IMG/VR virus record: IMGVR_UViG_2698536646_000013
Source: a virus
Lineage: Duplodnaviria > Heunggongvirae > Uroviricota > Caudoviricetes
DNA length: 55,213 bases
Direction: 5' to 3' (one strand)
The notes beneath the pieces are model-generated. The model did no database searches. It was not told where the DNA came from and worked only from the letters and a program-made list of their open reading frames with translations. The translations under genes were made by a program, and so were the position numbers. Shown here piece by piece: positions 33,038 to 53,661 of this stretch. Numbering within the stretch: position 1 is the first letter of the stretch; every line of letters starts with the position of its first letter.

Positions 33038-34495
33038 TTAGGAGCGCCAAAAAAAACCTGAAAACAATATAATAACAGGATAAATTTCAAGGCGACCAAG
33101 AATCATAGCTATGCACATTAAATATTTTGCAATGTCATTAAGCACTCCGAATGACGATGCAGTAGCCCCAAAACCTAATCCCATATTATTAATACATGCA
33201 GCCACTGTTGCAAATGATGTAAGAAAATCATATCCCATACCATTTAACACCAGTATAAAAAACACCGTGAAGAGAGTATAAAGAAAAAAGAAACTCCATA
33301 CAGACCTCATTACACGATCTGTAACTATCTTCCCTCCTACATTTACACTCAACAACGCTCTGGGATGAGAAAGCTGATTTATCTCGTGTTTGCTTTGTTT
33401 GAAAAGTATAAGAAATCGAAGTGACTTAATTCCACCACAGGTTGAACCTATACATCCCCCAAAGAAACTTGACAACAGCAAAAACACTATCGTGTGCGTG
33501 GGCCAGTTTGCATAATCCTGCGTAGCTAAACCATTATCAGTGAGCATGGAGCTGGCAAGAAAAAACGAATGAATAAAACTTCCATGCAAGTCATACATAC
33601 CTATATGCCAGACCTGGAAAGAGGTAACAATGATCACCCCTAAGGCTATTAACAGAAAGAAACGAAGTTCAATATCTCTGATTAAAGGTTTTATCGTTTT
33701 TCTGCTAATAACAATATACCAAAGAGTGAAGTTGAAAGCCGATAGCAGGGAAAAAGAACCAGCCACCAGCTCAACCAAATAGTTATTAAAATATCCGATA
33801 CTCTCGCTATGAGTTGAGAAACCACCAAGCGAAACTGTGGAAATCCCGTGACAAATAGCATCAAACAAAGGCATTCCTGCAAGTCTATAACAGACAATAC
33901 AAGCAATACCTAATAAAGAATAAGTTATCCACAGTGTCCGTGACGTATCGGCCAGGCGGGGAGTGAGTTTGTCATCCTTAAATGGCCCCGGCATTTCTGA
34001 CTGATAAAGCTTTGCACCACCAATACCCAATAATGGCAATACTGCAACCGCCAGAACAATAACTCCTAAACCACCTATAAAATTTAACTGTGACCGATAG
34101 TACAAATATGCCCGAGGTAATGAACTAACATCATCAATTACAGTTGCTCCTGTTGTTGTTATTCCAGAAACCCCTTCAAACAGAGCATCAATGAACGTTA
34201 AATTAAGTTCTGAGTCAATCCATAAAGGGAATGCACTAATAACAGAAAACAAAATCCAAAACATTACAATTATAATAAACCCATCACGGGTACGTAATTG
34301 AATGCCAGATTTCTTAGTTGTATACCACGCTCCGCCACCAATGCAAAAAAATATAACGAAAGTTATAAAGAAAACGAACAGGCTTTTTTCTTTATAAAAC
34401 AATGCTACAACCATTGGTGGCAACATTGAAAGACTATAGAGCCAAACCAGGAACCCACACATATGAGTAACAACTCTTACATGAGATGTATTCAT
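33038..34495 (-). CDS. trkG: Trk-system potassium uptake protein TrkG
   Basis: 485 aa from MNTSHVRVVTHMCGFLVWLYS (ATG 34495), multi-pass TrkH/TrkG transporter. trkG is a known Rac prophage gene. Confidence 0.9.
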   Translation of the reverse strand: MNTSHVRVVTHMCGFLVWLYSLSMLPPMVVALFYKEKSLFVFFITFVIFFCIGGGAWYTTKKSGIQLRTRDGFIIIVMFWILFSVISAFPLWIDSELNLTFIDALFEGVSGITTTGATVIDDVSSLPRAYLYYRSQLNFIGGLGVIVLAVAVLPLLGIGGAKLYQSEMPGPFKDDKLTPRLADTSRTLWITYSLLGIACIVCYRLAGMPLFDAICHGISTVSLGGFSTHSESIGYFNNYLVELVAGSFSLLSAFNFTLWYIVISRKTIKPLIRDIELRFFLLIALGVIIVTSFQVWHIGMYDLHGSFIHSFFLASSMLTDNGLATQDYANWPTHTIVFLLLSSFFGGCIGSTCGGIKSLRFLILFKQSKHEINQLSHPRALLSVNVGGKIVTDRVMRSVWSFFFLYTLFTVFFILVLNGMGYDFLTSFATVAACINNMGLGFGATASSFGVLNDIAKYLMCIAMILGRLEIYPVIILFSGFFWRS

Positions 34496-34632
34496 ATCTA
34501 AATATTCTTTCAATTATAACCACCTTGCTGCAATATTATGATTATACTGTATAAAATTTAACTCCTCTTAGATCTTACTTCACTGTTCCTTATGAAACAA
34601 TCATCAAAATGAATCATATTGTAGTTAAGATT

Positions 34633-35097
34633 TTACTTTAAACACTGCTCGGTTATGTATTGCTGAGCACCTTCAAGTTGGGCCTGCATCATTACCAGTC
34701 GTTCCCGGAGGGTGAAATAATCCCGTTCAGCGGTGTCTGCCAGTCGGGGGGAGGCTGCATTATCCACGCCGGAGGCGGTGGTGGCTTCACGCACTGACTG
34801 ACAGACTGCTTTGATGTGCAACCGACGACGACCAGCGGCAACATCATCACGCAGAGCATCATTTTCAGCTTTCGCATCAGCTAACTCCTTCGTGTATTTT
34901 GCATCGAGCGCAGCAACATCACGCTGACGCATCTGCATGTCAGTAATTGCCGCGTTCGCCAGCTTCAGTTCTCTGGCATTTTTGTCGCGCTGGGCTTTGT
35001 AGGTAATGGCGTTATCACGGTAATGATTAACAGCCCATGACAGGCAGACGATGATGCAGATAACCAGAGCGGAGATAATCGCGGTTACTCTGTTCAT
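34633..35097 (-). CDS. Spanin inner-membrane subunit Rz
   Basis: [38 protein letters not shown]..., phage-21-type Rz. ATG overlaps the endolysin stop (ATGA). Confidence 0.85.
34692..34877 (-). CDS. Spanin outer-membrane lipoprotein Rz1, embedded in Rz in the +1 frame
   Basis: 61 aa, lipobox LVVVGC and proline-rich [18 protein letters not shown], entirely inside Rz. Confidence 0.8.
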
Positions 35098-35591
35098 TGC
35101 TGACCCCACAAACAGATTTCACGCTCAATCTCACGACGAGTCATGAGACCTTTCCATTGCTTACCGCCAGCATATGTCCAGCGACGTAGCTGATCACATG
35201 CGCCTTTGATATCGCCCTGGTTTATTTTGCGAAGAAGCGTCGATGTTCTGAAATTGCCAGCACCCACGTTGTAAACGAATGAGTAAAGAGCGCCGCGCGT
35301 TGTTTCCGGTATATCGACTTTGATGTACGGGTTAATTTGTCTGGCGACAGTGGCAAGGTCTTTATTCAAGAGTGTTTTGCATTCTGCTTTGGTATACGTT
35401 TTACCGAGCATGATGTCTTTTCCTGTATGCCCGTGACATACAGTCCATACACCAACAATATCTTTGTATGGTATGTAGCTGACACCTTCCAGACCATCGT
35501 TACCACTTGGGCCAGTGATTAACACTGATGCTATAGCAATTGCTCCGCCACCAATAGCAGCAGCAACGACTTTTCGTAATGATGGAGGCAT
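35094..35591 (-). CDS. SAR endolysin (T4-type lysozyme fold)
   Basis: 165 aa, N-terminal signal-anchor-release segment [18 protein letters not shown], then a lysozyme core. Phage-21-R-like. Confidence 0.9.
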
Positions 35592-35806
35592 TATTCACCT
35601 CTCGCAGCCTTGCGCTTATCTTCTTTAATCTTGAAATAAAGGTTTGTCAGGTACGTCAGCAGGCCAAATACCAGACTACCCAGCACACCGATTGCAGCCC
35701 ACTGTGACGGAGTTACTCTATCGAGCAACTGTAAAAACCAGTAGCCAGCACTGCCTGCGGAGGTGCCGTAGGCAATGCCTGTTGAAATTTTGTCCATGGA
35801 TTTCAT
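35591..35806 (-). CDS. Class II holin (pinholin, phage-21-S-like)
   Basis: Start [14 protein letters not shown] with dual starts M1 and M4 (antiholin/holin). RBS GGAGGTGAGG. The ORF table shows a longer upstream extension. Confidence 0.85.
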
Positions 35807-35904
35807 AGCCTCACCTCCGCACGGAACGGATGGCATAGTTATTATGTGTAGGCTTTCAGACACATCAATCAGAGCCTTAATTGATATATATGCTGGAGAC
35901 GATG

Positions 35905-35931
35905 CAATATAAAAAGCTCGCCGTAGCGAGC
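35905..35931 (-). terminator. Rho-independent terminator between lipoprotein gene and holin
   Basis: Stem agctcgc / gcgagct, loop cgta, followed on the minus strand by TTTTATATT. Confidence 0.45.
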
Positions 35932-36057
35932 TAATAAAATGTATTTCTCTGATATTATGTTTATTTGTATTAGCTCAGACTTGACATCACAGGTTTCGTA
36001 TATAGAACATCATCAAATCTGTCAGTTTGCTATGAATGAGATATAGTAATTGAAGAG

Positions 36058-36453
36058 CTAACCTCGCATGTCAAAGCCAGATTTCTGAAAATCTCTGTAG
36101 ACTTCCGGATTGTTGAAGGCCGGAAATTTGGCTTTATGAGCTGCGGACTTTATCGCTTCGCAATAGGCTTTATCACCGTTACTGGTAGATATTTTTAACG
36201 CCGTGCCATCCTGAGAGAATTCCATATGCAACCTGCATTTTTTCCCTTTCCAGTTATGCGGCTCATCAAGTTTGGCATTAATTGCAGCTCTGATTCCCCG
36301 CGCTTGCGCCCCCCATTCATCCTGATCATCCCAGCGTCCTGAACTGCAACTACCTGTAGCAGTAGTTTTGTGGCAATCTGAAGGGTGTAAAGGTGTGCAT
36401 CCCGCAACAAAACCGACCCAAAAAGTCAACATAACGATTTTCTTTAATCCCAC
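36058..36453 (-). CDS. Lipoprotein with TolA C-terminal (domain III)-like region, paralogue 1
   Basis: 131 aa, lipobox FVAGC, C-terminus ...GKKCRLHMEFSQDGTALKIS...FPAFNNPEVYRDFQKSGFDMRG. Paralogous to the next gene. Confidence 0.8.
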   Translation of the reverse strand: MGLKKIVMLTFWVGFVAGCTPLHPSDCHKTTATGSCSSGRWDDQDEWGAQARGIRAAINAKLDEPHNWKGKKCRLHMEFSQDGTALKISTSNGDKAYCEAIKSAAHKAKFPAFNNPEVYRDFQKSGFDMRG

Positions 36454-36603
36454 TTCTTGCTCCTCAATCCATTAAAATCTCAGCAATAGTAGTTGTTACG
36501 TCCGCCACTGGCTCAGAGCTGACTATCCGCTAAATTTAGCTCAGTGCCGTAGCTGTGTCAGAACAAACCTAAGCCGAAACCGTTTATTACAAAACAATAA
36601 ATA

Positions 36604-37032
36604 TCAGGGTTTAAAATCCAGCACCCCATTTTGAAATACTTTATATACTTCCGGCGAAGGGGGGGCAGGTATATCAGCATTCTTTATCGCATTCATCGCT
36701 TCACGACATAAATCGAGGTCTCCACTTTCTCTTTTAACCTCCAGTAGAAGGCCATTCGGGGCCATATGCATTCTCAGTGTACACTCTTTTCCTGAATACT
36801 TACTCGCATCCCCGAACTGTTTTTCGATGGCGCTCTTGATTTGATGGGCATACAGACGGATATCCTCACTAACATCAGAAGTACGTTCAGATGAACTCAC
36901 ATACTGTGTCTCTATTGCTTTATCGGAGTAATATGATGTACGGTCATGATAATTTGTCGATACAGCATCAGTGCACCCGATAATAATCCCACTAATAATC
37001 AACGTAAGAATTGATGCGCTACGAAAACCCAT
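36604..37032 (-). CDS. Lipoprotein with TolA C-terminal (domain III)-like region, paralogue 2
   Basis: 142 aa, lipobox IIGC, C-terminus YAHQIKSAIEKQFGDASKYSGKECTLRMHMAPNGLLLEVK...IPAPPSPEVYKVFQNGVLDFKP, which resembles the TolA C-terminal domain as I recall it. Confidence 0.8.
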   Translation of the reverse strand: MGFRSASILTLIISGIIIGCTDAVSTNYHDRTSYYSDKAIETQYVSSSERTSDVSEDIRLYAHQIKSAIEKQFGDASKYSGKECTLRMHMAPNGLLLEVKRESGDLDLCREAMNAIKNADIPAPPSPEVYKVFQNGVLDFKP

Positions 37033-37620
37033 TTTTCCTCACATATGTCATATAGTAAAGGATTATATATACCGTTGTTTTGGACGCTCAAACAGCGAAT
37101 CAGATCAAATAAAACGCACATTTGTTAACATTTACACAAAGTCTGCGTGGGATATTCTGAAAGAATATCCATAATGTGGAGAGAATCTATTGAAGTGCAT
37201 GGTGCCGGGTGCCTCCCGGTGAACAAAATGTTCGTGATACCTGTCGGCGACAGAAAAGGTTAATGGTATCACCCCACCGCACAGGGGGATTCACCATGCA
37301 GGAGTTTTCTTAGCAAACTCACTGCGCGCCCGGCAACTCCCAACCACATAAAATGCGGAGTTTGTGGCATTTATGCATATAACTCGCAGGAATTATCTTA
37401 AAAAACTGATGTCGATCCGGATTAAAAAGAAGCAGGTCATCATCAGATGACTGGAAAAAAGGAAAACAAAAAATACTCATCATACAGTTTTGATTGCAGG
37501 GATGAGCCTGCTATGCACAATATGCAGAATATAAGCAAGATAAAAATATGCAGGCATATTATTTCGGATCTTGTTATTAACACAACCTTTTTAATAATCA
37601 TTTGGCATACAATAAACCAG

Positions 37621-37650
37621 CCCAAAAAGAACCGCCTAAACAGGCGGTTG
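37621..37650 (-). terminator. Rho-independent terminator in the Q-to-lysis intergenic region
   Basis: Stem aaccgcc / ggcggtt, loop taaaca, followed on the minus strand by CTTTTTGGG. Confidence 0.5.
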
Positions 37651-37969
37651 GTCAATACAAAGGATGCTTCGTCTTTATTATAGTAATCTGAGGCGTCGGG
37701 TGTCTTGTATCAGACAACATATTGTCCCGCTAAACAGCGAATTACAAACCACCCTGCAATGATCTCTCATCTCATTTTATATGAGTTGACGACATCAGGA
37801 TAACGCATCATCAGCCCCTGCCAAGAAATATCAAAACTCCCGCCAGCAATGTGTTATCACAATATTGTAAAAAAAACACAGCACCGAAACTATAACTGGT
37901 CTCTGTTATAATTTGGAGCAGAAAGACCAGTTGCCCAACTAGCAGCATTCTCCCCTGCTTTCCTGACGT

Positions 37970-37997
37970 AAAAAAACCGCATTAAGCGGTTTTTTTA
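37970..37997. terminator. Bidirectional rho-independent terminator about 80 bp downstream of Q (tR'-like)
   Basis: A7-aaccgc-attaa-gcggtt-T7: hairpin flanked by an A-run and a T-run, so it can terminate on either strand. Confidence 0.55.
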
Positions 37998-38076
37998 CGA
38001 TGTCCATGTCTGCAATCCGCCTCGCGATACAGCTTTGCGAAGCATAGCAAAATTGAAGCAGTTTATACGTAAGAAA

Positions 38077-38619
38077 TCAAGCCATTTTCTCAGCAAATGA
38101 TTCACGCATGGGAATATATAGGGCATACTCAGCAACAGCTAACCAATTAGCAATCCGTTTTTCGCATGTGCTAAAACACCACTCTGGGTGTGCATCATTT
38201 AGCAATTCAGCCATTTTGCGCTTAGTCATCCCCCGCCCTTCATAGCGTTGCCGGAGAATGCAAATCAATCCTGGATGCTCTGCCAGCACCTCACTTATGA
38301 CTCGATCAATACATAACGCCTCTGCATCAGTACAATGCGCCAGCCAGCTCTTTTGCTTGCCGTTGATCATCTCTCGCAAAAACGCTTCCAGCTCAGCTTT
38401 CTCTATTCCCGCTTTTTTCATTCTGCGCAGGGCTTCATTAATGGCTGTTTTCGTCAGTTTTTTGGATGCCAACAACTGATTGAACATATTCCCTGACCTG
38501 CCACCGCCAATATACGACCAGCGCCCCCACATACGTAGTTTTCCCTGAATCCAGACACTTTCCAGCGTGGTGAGGCGAAGGTGTTCTCCGCTTTTTCCTG
38601 TATTCGTTGGGTAAATCAT
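38077..38619 (-). CDS. Late-gene antitermination protein Q
   Basis: 180 aa, located just upstream of the terminator-rich late leader and lysis genes. Start overlaps the ybcO-like stop (ATGA). Confidence 0.75.
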   Translation of the reverse strand: MIYPTNTGKSGEHLRLTTLESVWIQGKLRMWGRWSYIGGGRSGNMFNQLLASKKLTKTAINEALRRMKKAGIEKAELEAFLREMINGKQKSWLAHCTDAEALCIDRVISEVLAEHPGLICILRQRYEGRGMTKRKMAELLNDAHPEWCFSTCEKRIANWLAVAEYALYIPMRESFAEKMA

Positions 38620-53472: not shown

Positions 53473-53661
53473 ATGTATAAAATTACCGCCACTATTGAAA
53501 AGGAAGGTGGCACTCCTACTAACTGGACAAGATATTCAAAATCTAAACTAACGAAATCAGAATGCGAAAAAATGCTCTCAGGTAAAAAAGAAGCAGGCGT
53601 TTCCAGAGAGCAGAAAGTAAAACTGATAAATTTTAATTGCGAGAAACTTCAGTCCTCGTGA
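53473..53661 (+). CDS. ydaC: YdaC-like small protein
   Basis: 62 aa MYKITATIEKEGGTPTNWTRYSKSKLTKSECEKMLSGKKEAGVSREQKVKLINFNCEKLQSS, RBS GGAGG. Confidence 0.6.
   Translation: MYKITATIEKEGGTPTNWTRYSKSKLTKSECEKMLSGKKEAGVSREQKVKLINFNCEKLQSS

Follow-up and report, generated by a model that had tools for sequence, protein, structure and literature searches.

Short prophage lipoproteins with a TolA domain III as possible decoys for TolA-binding phages and colicins

Two adjacent genes on the minus strand of a 55,213-nucleotide viral stretch (IMG/VR virus record IMGVR_UViG_2698536646_000013, Caudoviricetes), hereafter called the window, encode short lipoproteins that carry domain III of TolA (TolAIII). 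The two open reading frames (ORFs) are ORF1 (36604..37032, 142 amino acids (aa)) and ORF2 (36058..36453, 131 aa), the latter with a divergent version of the domain; both are present where an earlier note on this DNA had placed them. Short TolAIII lipoproteins form a large family, in which ORF1 and ORF2 belong to separate lineages. Together, the two genes move as a cassette consisting of a promoter-like site, ORF1, ORF2 and an intrinsic terminator; in at least two lambdoid backbones, this cassette fills the cargo slot between Q and the holin. Based on homology, predicted location and context, we tentatively propose that the two lipoproteins may be outer-membrane-tethered decoys for invaders that bind TolA. 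The homology of the domain is already recorded in RefSeq; proposed as new is that exclusion lipoproteins encoded by a mobile element would act by mimicking a coreceptor, a function that we infer. Beyond the earlier note, the analysis adds the separation into two lineages, the occurrence of ORF2-type genes as a backbone gene of I-complex plasmids and as a single chromosomal gene in other genera, and the TolA-domain labels in RefSeq.

The resemblance of both proteins to TolAIII, which the earlier note had pointed out, proved to be far above chance in Pfam, phmmer and AlphaFold/Foldseek comparisons, and the TolA sequence given in the note agrees with that in the PDB. The Pfam model PF06519 (curated gathering threshold, 25 bits) matched ORF1 with 82.6 bits (E 2.4e-23, model positions 4-96 of 96) and ORF2 with 54.6 bits (E 1.3e-14, model positions 10-92 of 96). 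In phmmer comparisons with the TolAIII chains of the PDB, E-values of 5e-28 and 5e-9 were obtained for ORF1 and ORF2, respectively. Aligned to the C-terminal region of TolA, ORF1 shows 60.5% identity to E. coli TolA 336-421, and ORF2 shows 33.8% identity to domain III. The AlphaFold models reached a predicted local distance difference test score (pLDDT) of ~90 over aa 51-142 of ORF1 and aa 41-131 of ORF2, with helices and strands in the same order as in TolAIII. Confidence was low between the lipid-bearing cysteine and the domain in ORF2, and the pLDDT was below 50 over aa 18-50 of ORF1. The top matches in Foldseek were the TolAIII entries 3QDP, 3QDR, 2X9A and 1TOL, with root-mean-square deviations (rmsd) of 0.6-1.1 Å; ORF1 superimposed on 2X9A_B with an rmsd of 0.6 Å over 88 residues, and ORF2 on 3QDP with 1.1 Å and a TM score of 0.92. 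Both proteins share with E. coli TolA domain III (~330-421; 1S62, 3QDP, 1TOL, 2X9A, 3QDR) the alpha1-beta1-beta2-alpha2-alpha3-beta3 fold and the disulfide, and the C363-C388 pair (TolA numbering) that forms it is invariant in the ORF1 and ORF2 families. The C-terminal domain of TonB, which also engages its partners by beta-strand addition, is a distant structural relative (weak Pfam TonB_2 match for ORF1, Foldseek ranks 10-20). However, the likeness to TolAIII is much stronger, and ORF1 and ORF2 lack the TonB-box logic and the ExbBD coupling.

In contrast to TolA, neither protein has domain I, which provides the inner-membrane anchor and the coupling to TolQR, or the long helical domain II. 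Instead, the lipoprotein signal predicts that the domain is placed on the other membrane, with no coupling to the proton-motive force. With NF007065, a model of full-length TolA with a cut-off of 213, ORF1 and ORF2 scored 107.8 and 53.7, and only model positions ~293-387 were covered. The cut-off of TIGR02794 (59.45) was passed by ORF1 (75.6) through the C-terminal domain alone. We therefore rejected the assignment of either protein as full-length TolA, given the scores under the NF007065 cut-off, the lengths of 142 and 131 aa and the missing anchor and helix. In RefSeq, ORF1 is named 'cell envelope integrity protein TolA' and ORF2 'TolA C-terminal domain-containing protein'; the former name is an over-call, as ORF1 lacks both domain I and domain II.

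The genes had been described as tandem paralogues. They are indeed adjacent and share the same domain, but a close relationship was not found: the mutual identity is just ~31%, no closer than that of ORF2 to TolA (34%), and each gene occurs alone elsewhere. A recent tandem duplication was rejected on these grounds. A recent origin from the resident tolA of E. coli was rejected as well. ORF1 and TolA share only 60% identity as proteins, and a megablast search with the ORF1-ORF2 pair gave matches in only 1339 of 5426 complete E. coli genomes, thereby missing the chromosomal tolA that is present in every genome. Both proteins fall into PHROG 5772, which is labelled 'unknown function'.

A lipoprotein signal and a lipobox had been read from both sequences, and each satisfies the PROSITE-type pattern (charged n-region, hydrophobic core and [LVI][ASTVI][GAS]C inside the first ~35 residues). 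ORF1 starts with ATG at 37032, with GAGG just before. Its signal peptide and lipobox (aa 1-20, 37032..36973) comprise R4 in the n-region and the lipobox IIIG-C20, with Cys20 encoded at 36975..36973 and Thr at position +2. A Ser/Thr/Tyr-rich tether that is predicted to be disordered (aa 21-53, 36972..36874) leads to the TolAIII fold (aa 54-142, 36873..36607). ORF2 starts with GTG at 36453, preceded by GAGGAG, and carries K4K5 in the n-region and the lipobox FVAG-C19, again with Thr at +2 (signal peptide and lipobox, aa 1-19, 36453..36397). The lipid-bearing cysteine is followed by a segment that is invariant in the ORF2 family, PLHPSxCHKTTATGSCSSGRWDDQDEWG (aa 20-48, 36396..36310), which contains two further cysteines and has no counterpart in TolA; the TolAIII fold covers aa 41-131 (36333..36061). 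RefSeq starts ORF2 at an internal Met (124 aa) and thereby loses the Lys-Lys n-region. The annotated plasmid homologues of ORF2 start 12 codons too early, and the codons read there as 'EEQ' correspond to the same Shine-Dalgarno sequence. The lipobox is retained in 118 of 120 ORF2-family and 26 of 30 ORF1-family homologues, and the +2 residue is A, T, S, G or V across both families, never Asp. According to the Lol sorting rule, lipoproteins without Asp at +2 after the lipidated Cys are directed to the outer membrane. Both proteins, with Thr at this position, are therefore predicted to be outer-membrane lipoproteins.

Residues of ORF1 are numbered here as in TolA, the ORF1 residue being the TolA residue minus 279. 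The beta3 strand of TolA, L417-D418-F419-K420-P421, is identical in ORF1, where LDFKP forms the C-terminus. In TolA, this strand accepts strand addition from TolB, colicin N and the N1 domain of the filamentous-phage protein g3p, and the D418P or K420P mutation abolishes all three interactions (PMC4339652). The colicin A site on TolA comprises L375-P380 as well as K368, K379 and K396 (PMC3365938). In ORF1, the stretch LLDIKP reads LLEVKR, K379 and K396 are kept and K368 is replaced by His. The C-terminal strand of ORF2 is FDMRG, not LDFKP, with the Asp kept and the Lys replaced by Arg. A beta3 strand was predicted in the AlphaFold models of both proteins.

In the mechanism that we propose, export would be followed by lipidation at the lipobox Cys, and the Lol pathway would deliver the proteins to the outer membrane, where they would sit in its inner leaflet. 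The TolAIII domain would then hang on a tether of 20-30 residues just beneath the outer membrane, the place where colicin translocation domains and g3p N1 would first emerge. There, the decoy could meet these invaders ahead of the TolQR-coupled TolA, whether they are g3p N1 of filamentous phages of the Ff/If1 type or the translocation domains that group A colicins such as A and N use. Capture might proceed by TolA-like beta-strand addition, and import would stall because the decoy is uncoupled from TolQR. As a result, the lysogen, or the induced cell during virion assembly, would tolerate such agents. Placement in a late operon might serve the same end: DNA damage would trigger colicin release by neighbours together with prophage induction, and the decoy could keep the induced cell alive until burst. 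For ORF1 and ORF2, we infer localisation, expression in the lysogen, ligand binding and protection alike.

Several observations are consistent with a role as decoys. The affinities given in one study are 1 µM for colicin N and TolA and 40 µM for TolB and TolA (PMC4339652), which suggests that even moderate quantities of a decoy could capture invaders while TolB would not be titrated. Periplasmic pIII-N1 confers colicin A resistance and a 4-log lower phage uptake (PMC10424213); blocking the contact between TolA and its ligands in the periplasm thus does protect. The coreceptor of the I-pilus phage IF1 is TolAIII, according to the title of PDB entry 2X9A. Relatives of the two genes reside on elements that make the pili used by these phages, with ORF2-type genes located after nikB on MPF_I I-complex plasmids. 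Other relatives adjoin defence-type genes, which we also count for a decoy function. Levengood-Freyermuth et al. are reported to have found in 1993 that export of TolA's C-terminal domain to the periplasm renders cells colicin-tolerant.

Such a function would have parallels in known systems. The exclusion lipoproteins Cor (phi80, N15, mEp167), Llp (T5) and TraT (F) are small outer-membrane proteins encoded as cargo by mobile elements, and they protect the carrier from phage or DNA. ORF1 and ORF2 resemble them as small, predicted outer-membrane lipoproteins carried as cargo by a resident element. However, whereas Cor, Llp and TraT mask an outer-membrane receptor (FhuA, OmpA), the TolAIII lipoproteins are proposed to mimic a periplasmic coreceptor and to titrate the invader, and there is no sequence relationship. 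Immunity conferred by pIII (g3p) of filamentous phages concerns the same periplasmic contact, that of TolAIII with g3p-N1 or a colicin, but is its mirror image. There, pIII occupies TolA and causes tol-like defects, whereas it is the invader that the TolAIII lipoproteins would bind, with TolA remaining free.

On the other hand, a number of points weigh against a decoy function. ORF2 is only 34% identical to TolAIII and, as far as the alignment tells, much less TolA-like at the binding-site positions, two of the three colicin A lysines not being evidently retained; mimicry by ORF2 is hypothetical. A conserved host partner would account for the extreme conservation of the ORF2 family across genera, and for the single chromosomal gene in non-mobile contexts in Enterobacter, no less well than an arms race with invaders. 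The promoter assigned to the cassette is a candidate called by consensus match, and from a position inside the late operon the strongest expression is expected in lytic growth. Additionally, no PADLOC defence model matches ORF1 or ORF2. Finally, the identity of beta3 in ORF1 predicts binding to TolB, which would disturb Tol-Pal.

The main rival explanation is interference with Tol-Pal, which we consider rather unlikely. By binding the N-terminal strand of TolB at the outer membrane, the tethered TolAIII domains would compete with TolA; complexes of TolB and Pal would stay associated, and the outer membrane would be loosened. In the phage, such an activity would come late and might aid the final outer-membrane step of lysis or increase vesiculation, while on plasmids and chromosomes it might tune the envelope. 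The exact TolB-binding strand in ORF1, including D418 and K420, argues for this reading. So does the position of both genes in a Q-dependent late operon, directly upstream of the holin, endolysin and spanin genes, although a complete Rz/Rz1 spanin pair is already there. Periplasmic TolAIII makes cells leaky, which would agree with interference. However, a constitutively leaky envelope would be costly, and yet the pair is retained in 14% of complete E. coli genomes. Moreover, a promoter-like site and a terminator belong to the cassette itself, which is dispensable on the same phage backbone. The full tol phenotype of the beta3 proline mutants of TolA (PMC4339652) indicates that the contact between TolA and TolB is critical, but its weakness (~40 µM in that study) would require high copy numbers of a competitor. 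Strong purifying selection and the chromosomal ORF2-type copies would fit a conserved host target, and a review states that modulated TolB interactions could regulate vesicle production (PMC7391070).

Full-text searches of the literature found no functional study of short TolA-like lipoproteins encoded by phages, plasmids or chromosomes. One paper on uropathogenic E. coli merely lists 'TolA protein, hypothetical protein' in a 1355-bp prophage-associated variable region. In the passages searched of a paper on transposon-directed insertion sequencing (TraDIS) of an I-complex plasmid, the ORF2-type gene is not mentioned.

A sigma-70 promoter-like site, TTGAGC-18-TATAAT (37062..37091, minus strand, as are all features of the cassette), lies ~30 nt upstream of the ORF1 start and was assigned by 10 of 12 consensus matches only. 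A weaker promoter-like site, CTGACA-17-TAAATT (36533..36561, 9 of 12 matches), lies in the 150-nt spacer between ORF1 and ORF2, in which folding revealed no significant structure or terminator (z = -0.42). Between ORF2 and the holin gene, an intrinsic terminator (AGCUCGC-UACG-GCGAGCU followed by UUUUUAUAUU; 35915..35932; -16.4 kcal/mol, z = -3.45) marks the 3' end of the cassette. The GC content of the cassette is 38-46%, compared to 47-52% in the flanks.

In phage mEp460_ev081, both genes (99%) are found between a different Q and the holin. There, sequence sharing is confined to the region from the holin through ~190 nt upstream of ORF1, and the promoter-like site is identical. Across 80 IMG/VR prophage loci, the block consisting of 190 nt upstream, ORF1, ORF2, terminator and holin is constant, while the upstream Q region is of at least two types and the lysozyme also of at least two types. 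The 190 nt upstream of ORF1 were found in 79 of the 80 loci, irrespective of the backbone. When IMG/VR was scanned for divergent relatives in phages, all that came back were near-identical copies from E. coli prophages, which are informative for the boundaries of the cassette, not for diversity. In phage vB_EcoS-683R6 (locus L014, 2585-2735), tRNA-Gly and tRNA-Thr take the place of the TolA-like pair between the same Rac-type Q and holin, which shows alternative cargo in one slot. A Stx-phage-like prophage carries a solitary ORF1-type gene (66% aa identity) between tRNA-Ile/Arg and nanS-p, at the stx position. The pair, covered to at least 80%, is present in 776 of the 5426 complete E. coli genomes (14%). 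Absence from an otherwise matching backbone, movement between backbones and deviant composition are features that the pair has in common with morons.

The earlier note had placed the genes in the moron hotspot where other phages carry stx or bor. For stx, this is borne out by the ORF1-type gene at the stx position. For bor it does not hold, as lambda bor sits downstream of Rz, outside the Q-to-S slot; lambda bor and lom are morons located elsewhere. With the known Q-to-S cargo (stx, nanS-p, tRNAs), the pair shares the variable slot, AT-richness, a promoter-like site and terminator, and alternative cargo on one backbone. Its product differs from those of other morons in being a mimic of a host protein, not a toxin, esterase or serum-resistance factor.

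Relatives occur well beyond prophages. ORF2-type genes (88% aa identity) are found as solitary genes on ~600 plasmids; on conjugative MPF_I I-complex plasmids such as IncK2/Z, the gene lies 68 nt downstream of the nikB relaxase gene, and on pO157 it adjoins a nikB remnant. In Enterobacter and Serratia, the ORF2-type family (80-88% identity) is represented by a single chromosomal gene outside any prophage. A divergent TolAIII member was found in a variable chromosomal region of Hafnia. An exhaustive HMMER search of 1.8 billion representatives yielded 130 relatives, 72 of which are 100-175 aa in length; a strict lipobox is present in 49 of these 72. The consensus of 26 divergent members ends in ...FKNAxLDFK, as in TolA. 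Short TolAIII lipoproteins are thus a broad family of Enterobacterales, mostly of the accessory genome.

Some neighbourhoods of these relatives were recorded. In Serratia marcescens (locus L011, 7001-9736), the ORF2-type gene has nrdDG on one side and a GmrSD and HEPN gene pair on the other, a defence-type neighbourhood. On Klebsiella IncFII/IncFIB plasmids (L018, 2083-3297; L007, 5217-6246), a TolAIII gene of 133-144 aa adjoins a gene for a thioredoxin-fold protein; identity to ORF2 is ~35% in some 300 plasmid records. A cysH-cysG variable islet (L020/L021, 4715-8399) contains the gene for a divergent TolAIII lipoprotein of 137 aa, 5 nt after HNH_2 and before an HTH/HipA pair.

Selection was assessed by pairwise Nei-Gojobori estimates of the ratio of nonsynonymous to synonymous substitution rates (dN/dS). 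Values of 0.06-0.13 were obtained for the ORF2 family, the N-terminal segment included, and 0.40 for ORF1 compared with the Stx-slot variant. Judged by these values, which are well below 1, both genes are taken to be functional. These pairwise estimates (0.06-0.40), which come from few sequences, gave no indication of positive selection such as an arms race might leave. ORF1 alleles are mosaic; P0143, for instance, combines a divergent N-terminal half with an identical C-terminal half. A few ORF1 alleles are frameshifted (e.g. P0130; window 36558-36680, minus strand), so that the last ~17 residues including LDFKP are replaced by the product of an overlapping frame. These are probably inactivated copies.

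Such alleles and the value of 0.40, which points to relaxed selection in the ORF1 family, would suit yet another explanation, namely a captured domain with another or no adaptive role. Its partner would then be unrelated to the TolA ligands, for example an envelope protein or a component of conjugation, or the genes would be near-neutral passengers of the cassette. We regard this as unlikely. The extra segment conserved in ORF2, for which TolA has no counterpart, would speak for a different partner, and so would the I-complex plasmid gene, which starts 68 nt after the relaxase gene and may be co-transcribed with the transfer genes. However, dN/dS is well below 1 in both families, lipobox and disulfide are conserved, and the cassette is 99-100% identical over hundreds of genomes and several backbones. 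Additionally, it is specifically the strands by which TolA binds its ligands that ORF1 has kept.

For the ORF2-type family, we also considered a very improbable role as a dedicated TolB trap, that is, an outer-membrane-tethered regulator of Tol-Pal serving chromosomes, I-complex plasmids and prophages. The invariant Trp/acid segment behind the lipid anchor, SSGRWDDQDEWG, would engage the TolB beta-propeller like the colicin E9 epitope or Pal, while TolAIII would capture the N-terminal strand of TolB. By eye only, SSGRWDDQDEWG resembles the TolB-binding epitope of colicin E9/E3, GASDGSGWSSENNPWG, the sequence of which was verified and the role of which has been described (PMC7391070). A relationship of the ORF2 N-terminal segment to the colicin E9 epitope found no support, since an unbiased search gave no colicin match. 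If such a trap existed, it would control envelope stability, vesiculation and all TolB-dependent import.

If instead the two lipoproteins do act as decoys, they would represent a natural 'coreceptor decoy', a principle of defence unlike receptor masking, restriction or abortive infection. Of the complete E. coli genomes, roughly one in seven would have it on a prophage, and common I-complex resistance plasmids as well as pO157 would also carry it. It could alter the response of strains to colicin-based antimicrobials and to the pilus-specific filamentous phages that have been proposed as anti-plasmid agents. Interference with Tol-Pal, if that were the function, would make the proteins the first natural Tol-Pal inhibitors encoded by mobile elements, and Tol-Pal is under study as an antibiotic target. 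Under either reading, the proteins are small and soluble.

The window appears to be a complete lambdoid prophage of the Rac type that looks intact, has ttcA of E. coli as its integration site and extends from the tail genes through intR. Its gene content includes intR, xisR, ralR/RalA, recET, kilR, sieB, head and tail genes, and trkG. The small RNA RalA (53479-53657, minus strand, 225 bits), the antitoxin of the RalR/RalA type I toxin-antitoxin pair, is consistent with a Rac prophage. The potassium transporter gene trkG (33038-34513, minus strand) is cargo, with the lysis genes on one side and those for the ParB-like protein and the terminase on the other.

The late region, on the minus strand throughout, has the order Q-like gene, non-coding leader of ~1 kb, ORF1, 150-nt spacer, ORF2, terminator, essD, rrrD and Rz/Rz1. 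The Q-like late antiterminator of the DUF1133 family (38077..38619) has a counterpart in phage vB_EcoS-683R6 that is annotated 'antitermination protein Q'. Immediately 3' of this gene lies a strong terminator, AAAAAAACCGCTTAATGCGGTTTTTTT (37967-38043). An isrK-like Rfam match overlaps it, but is weak (21.6 bits, under the gathering score). A candidate late promoter, AAGACA-18-TATAAT (37706..37677), was assigned by position and consensus only, and a terminator (37649..37630) follows ~30 nt past this promoter-like site. Together (37630..37706), they look like a short late-promoter unit of the pR'/tR' type for the DUF1133 Q-like protein, downstream of Q.

Further along the leader, upstream of ORF1, a structured RNA of the STnc100 family was matched in Rfam (37143..37329; 86.6 bits, gathering score 47). 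Unlike the consensus of the family, this RNA has no U-tract in the 3' hairpin, and its 3' ~80 nt travel with the TolA-like cassette into other phage backbones. Downstream of the cassette, the lysis genes (34633..35863) comprise the class II holin gene essD (35863/35806..35591), the lysozyme gene rrrD (35591..35094) and the spanin genes Rz (35109..34633) and Rz1 (34877..34692). In strain LD39-1 (locus L001, 10259-12092), an otherwise identical prophage carries IS2 inside rrrD, and the TolA-like pair is intact.

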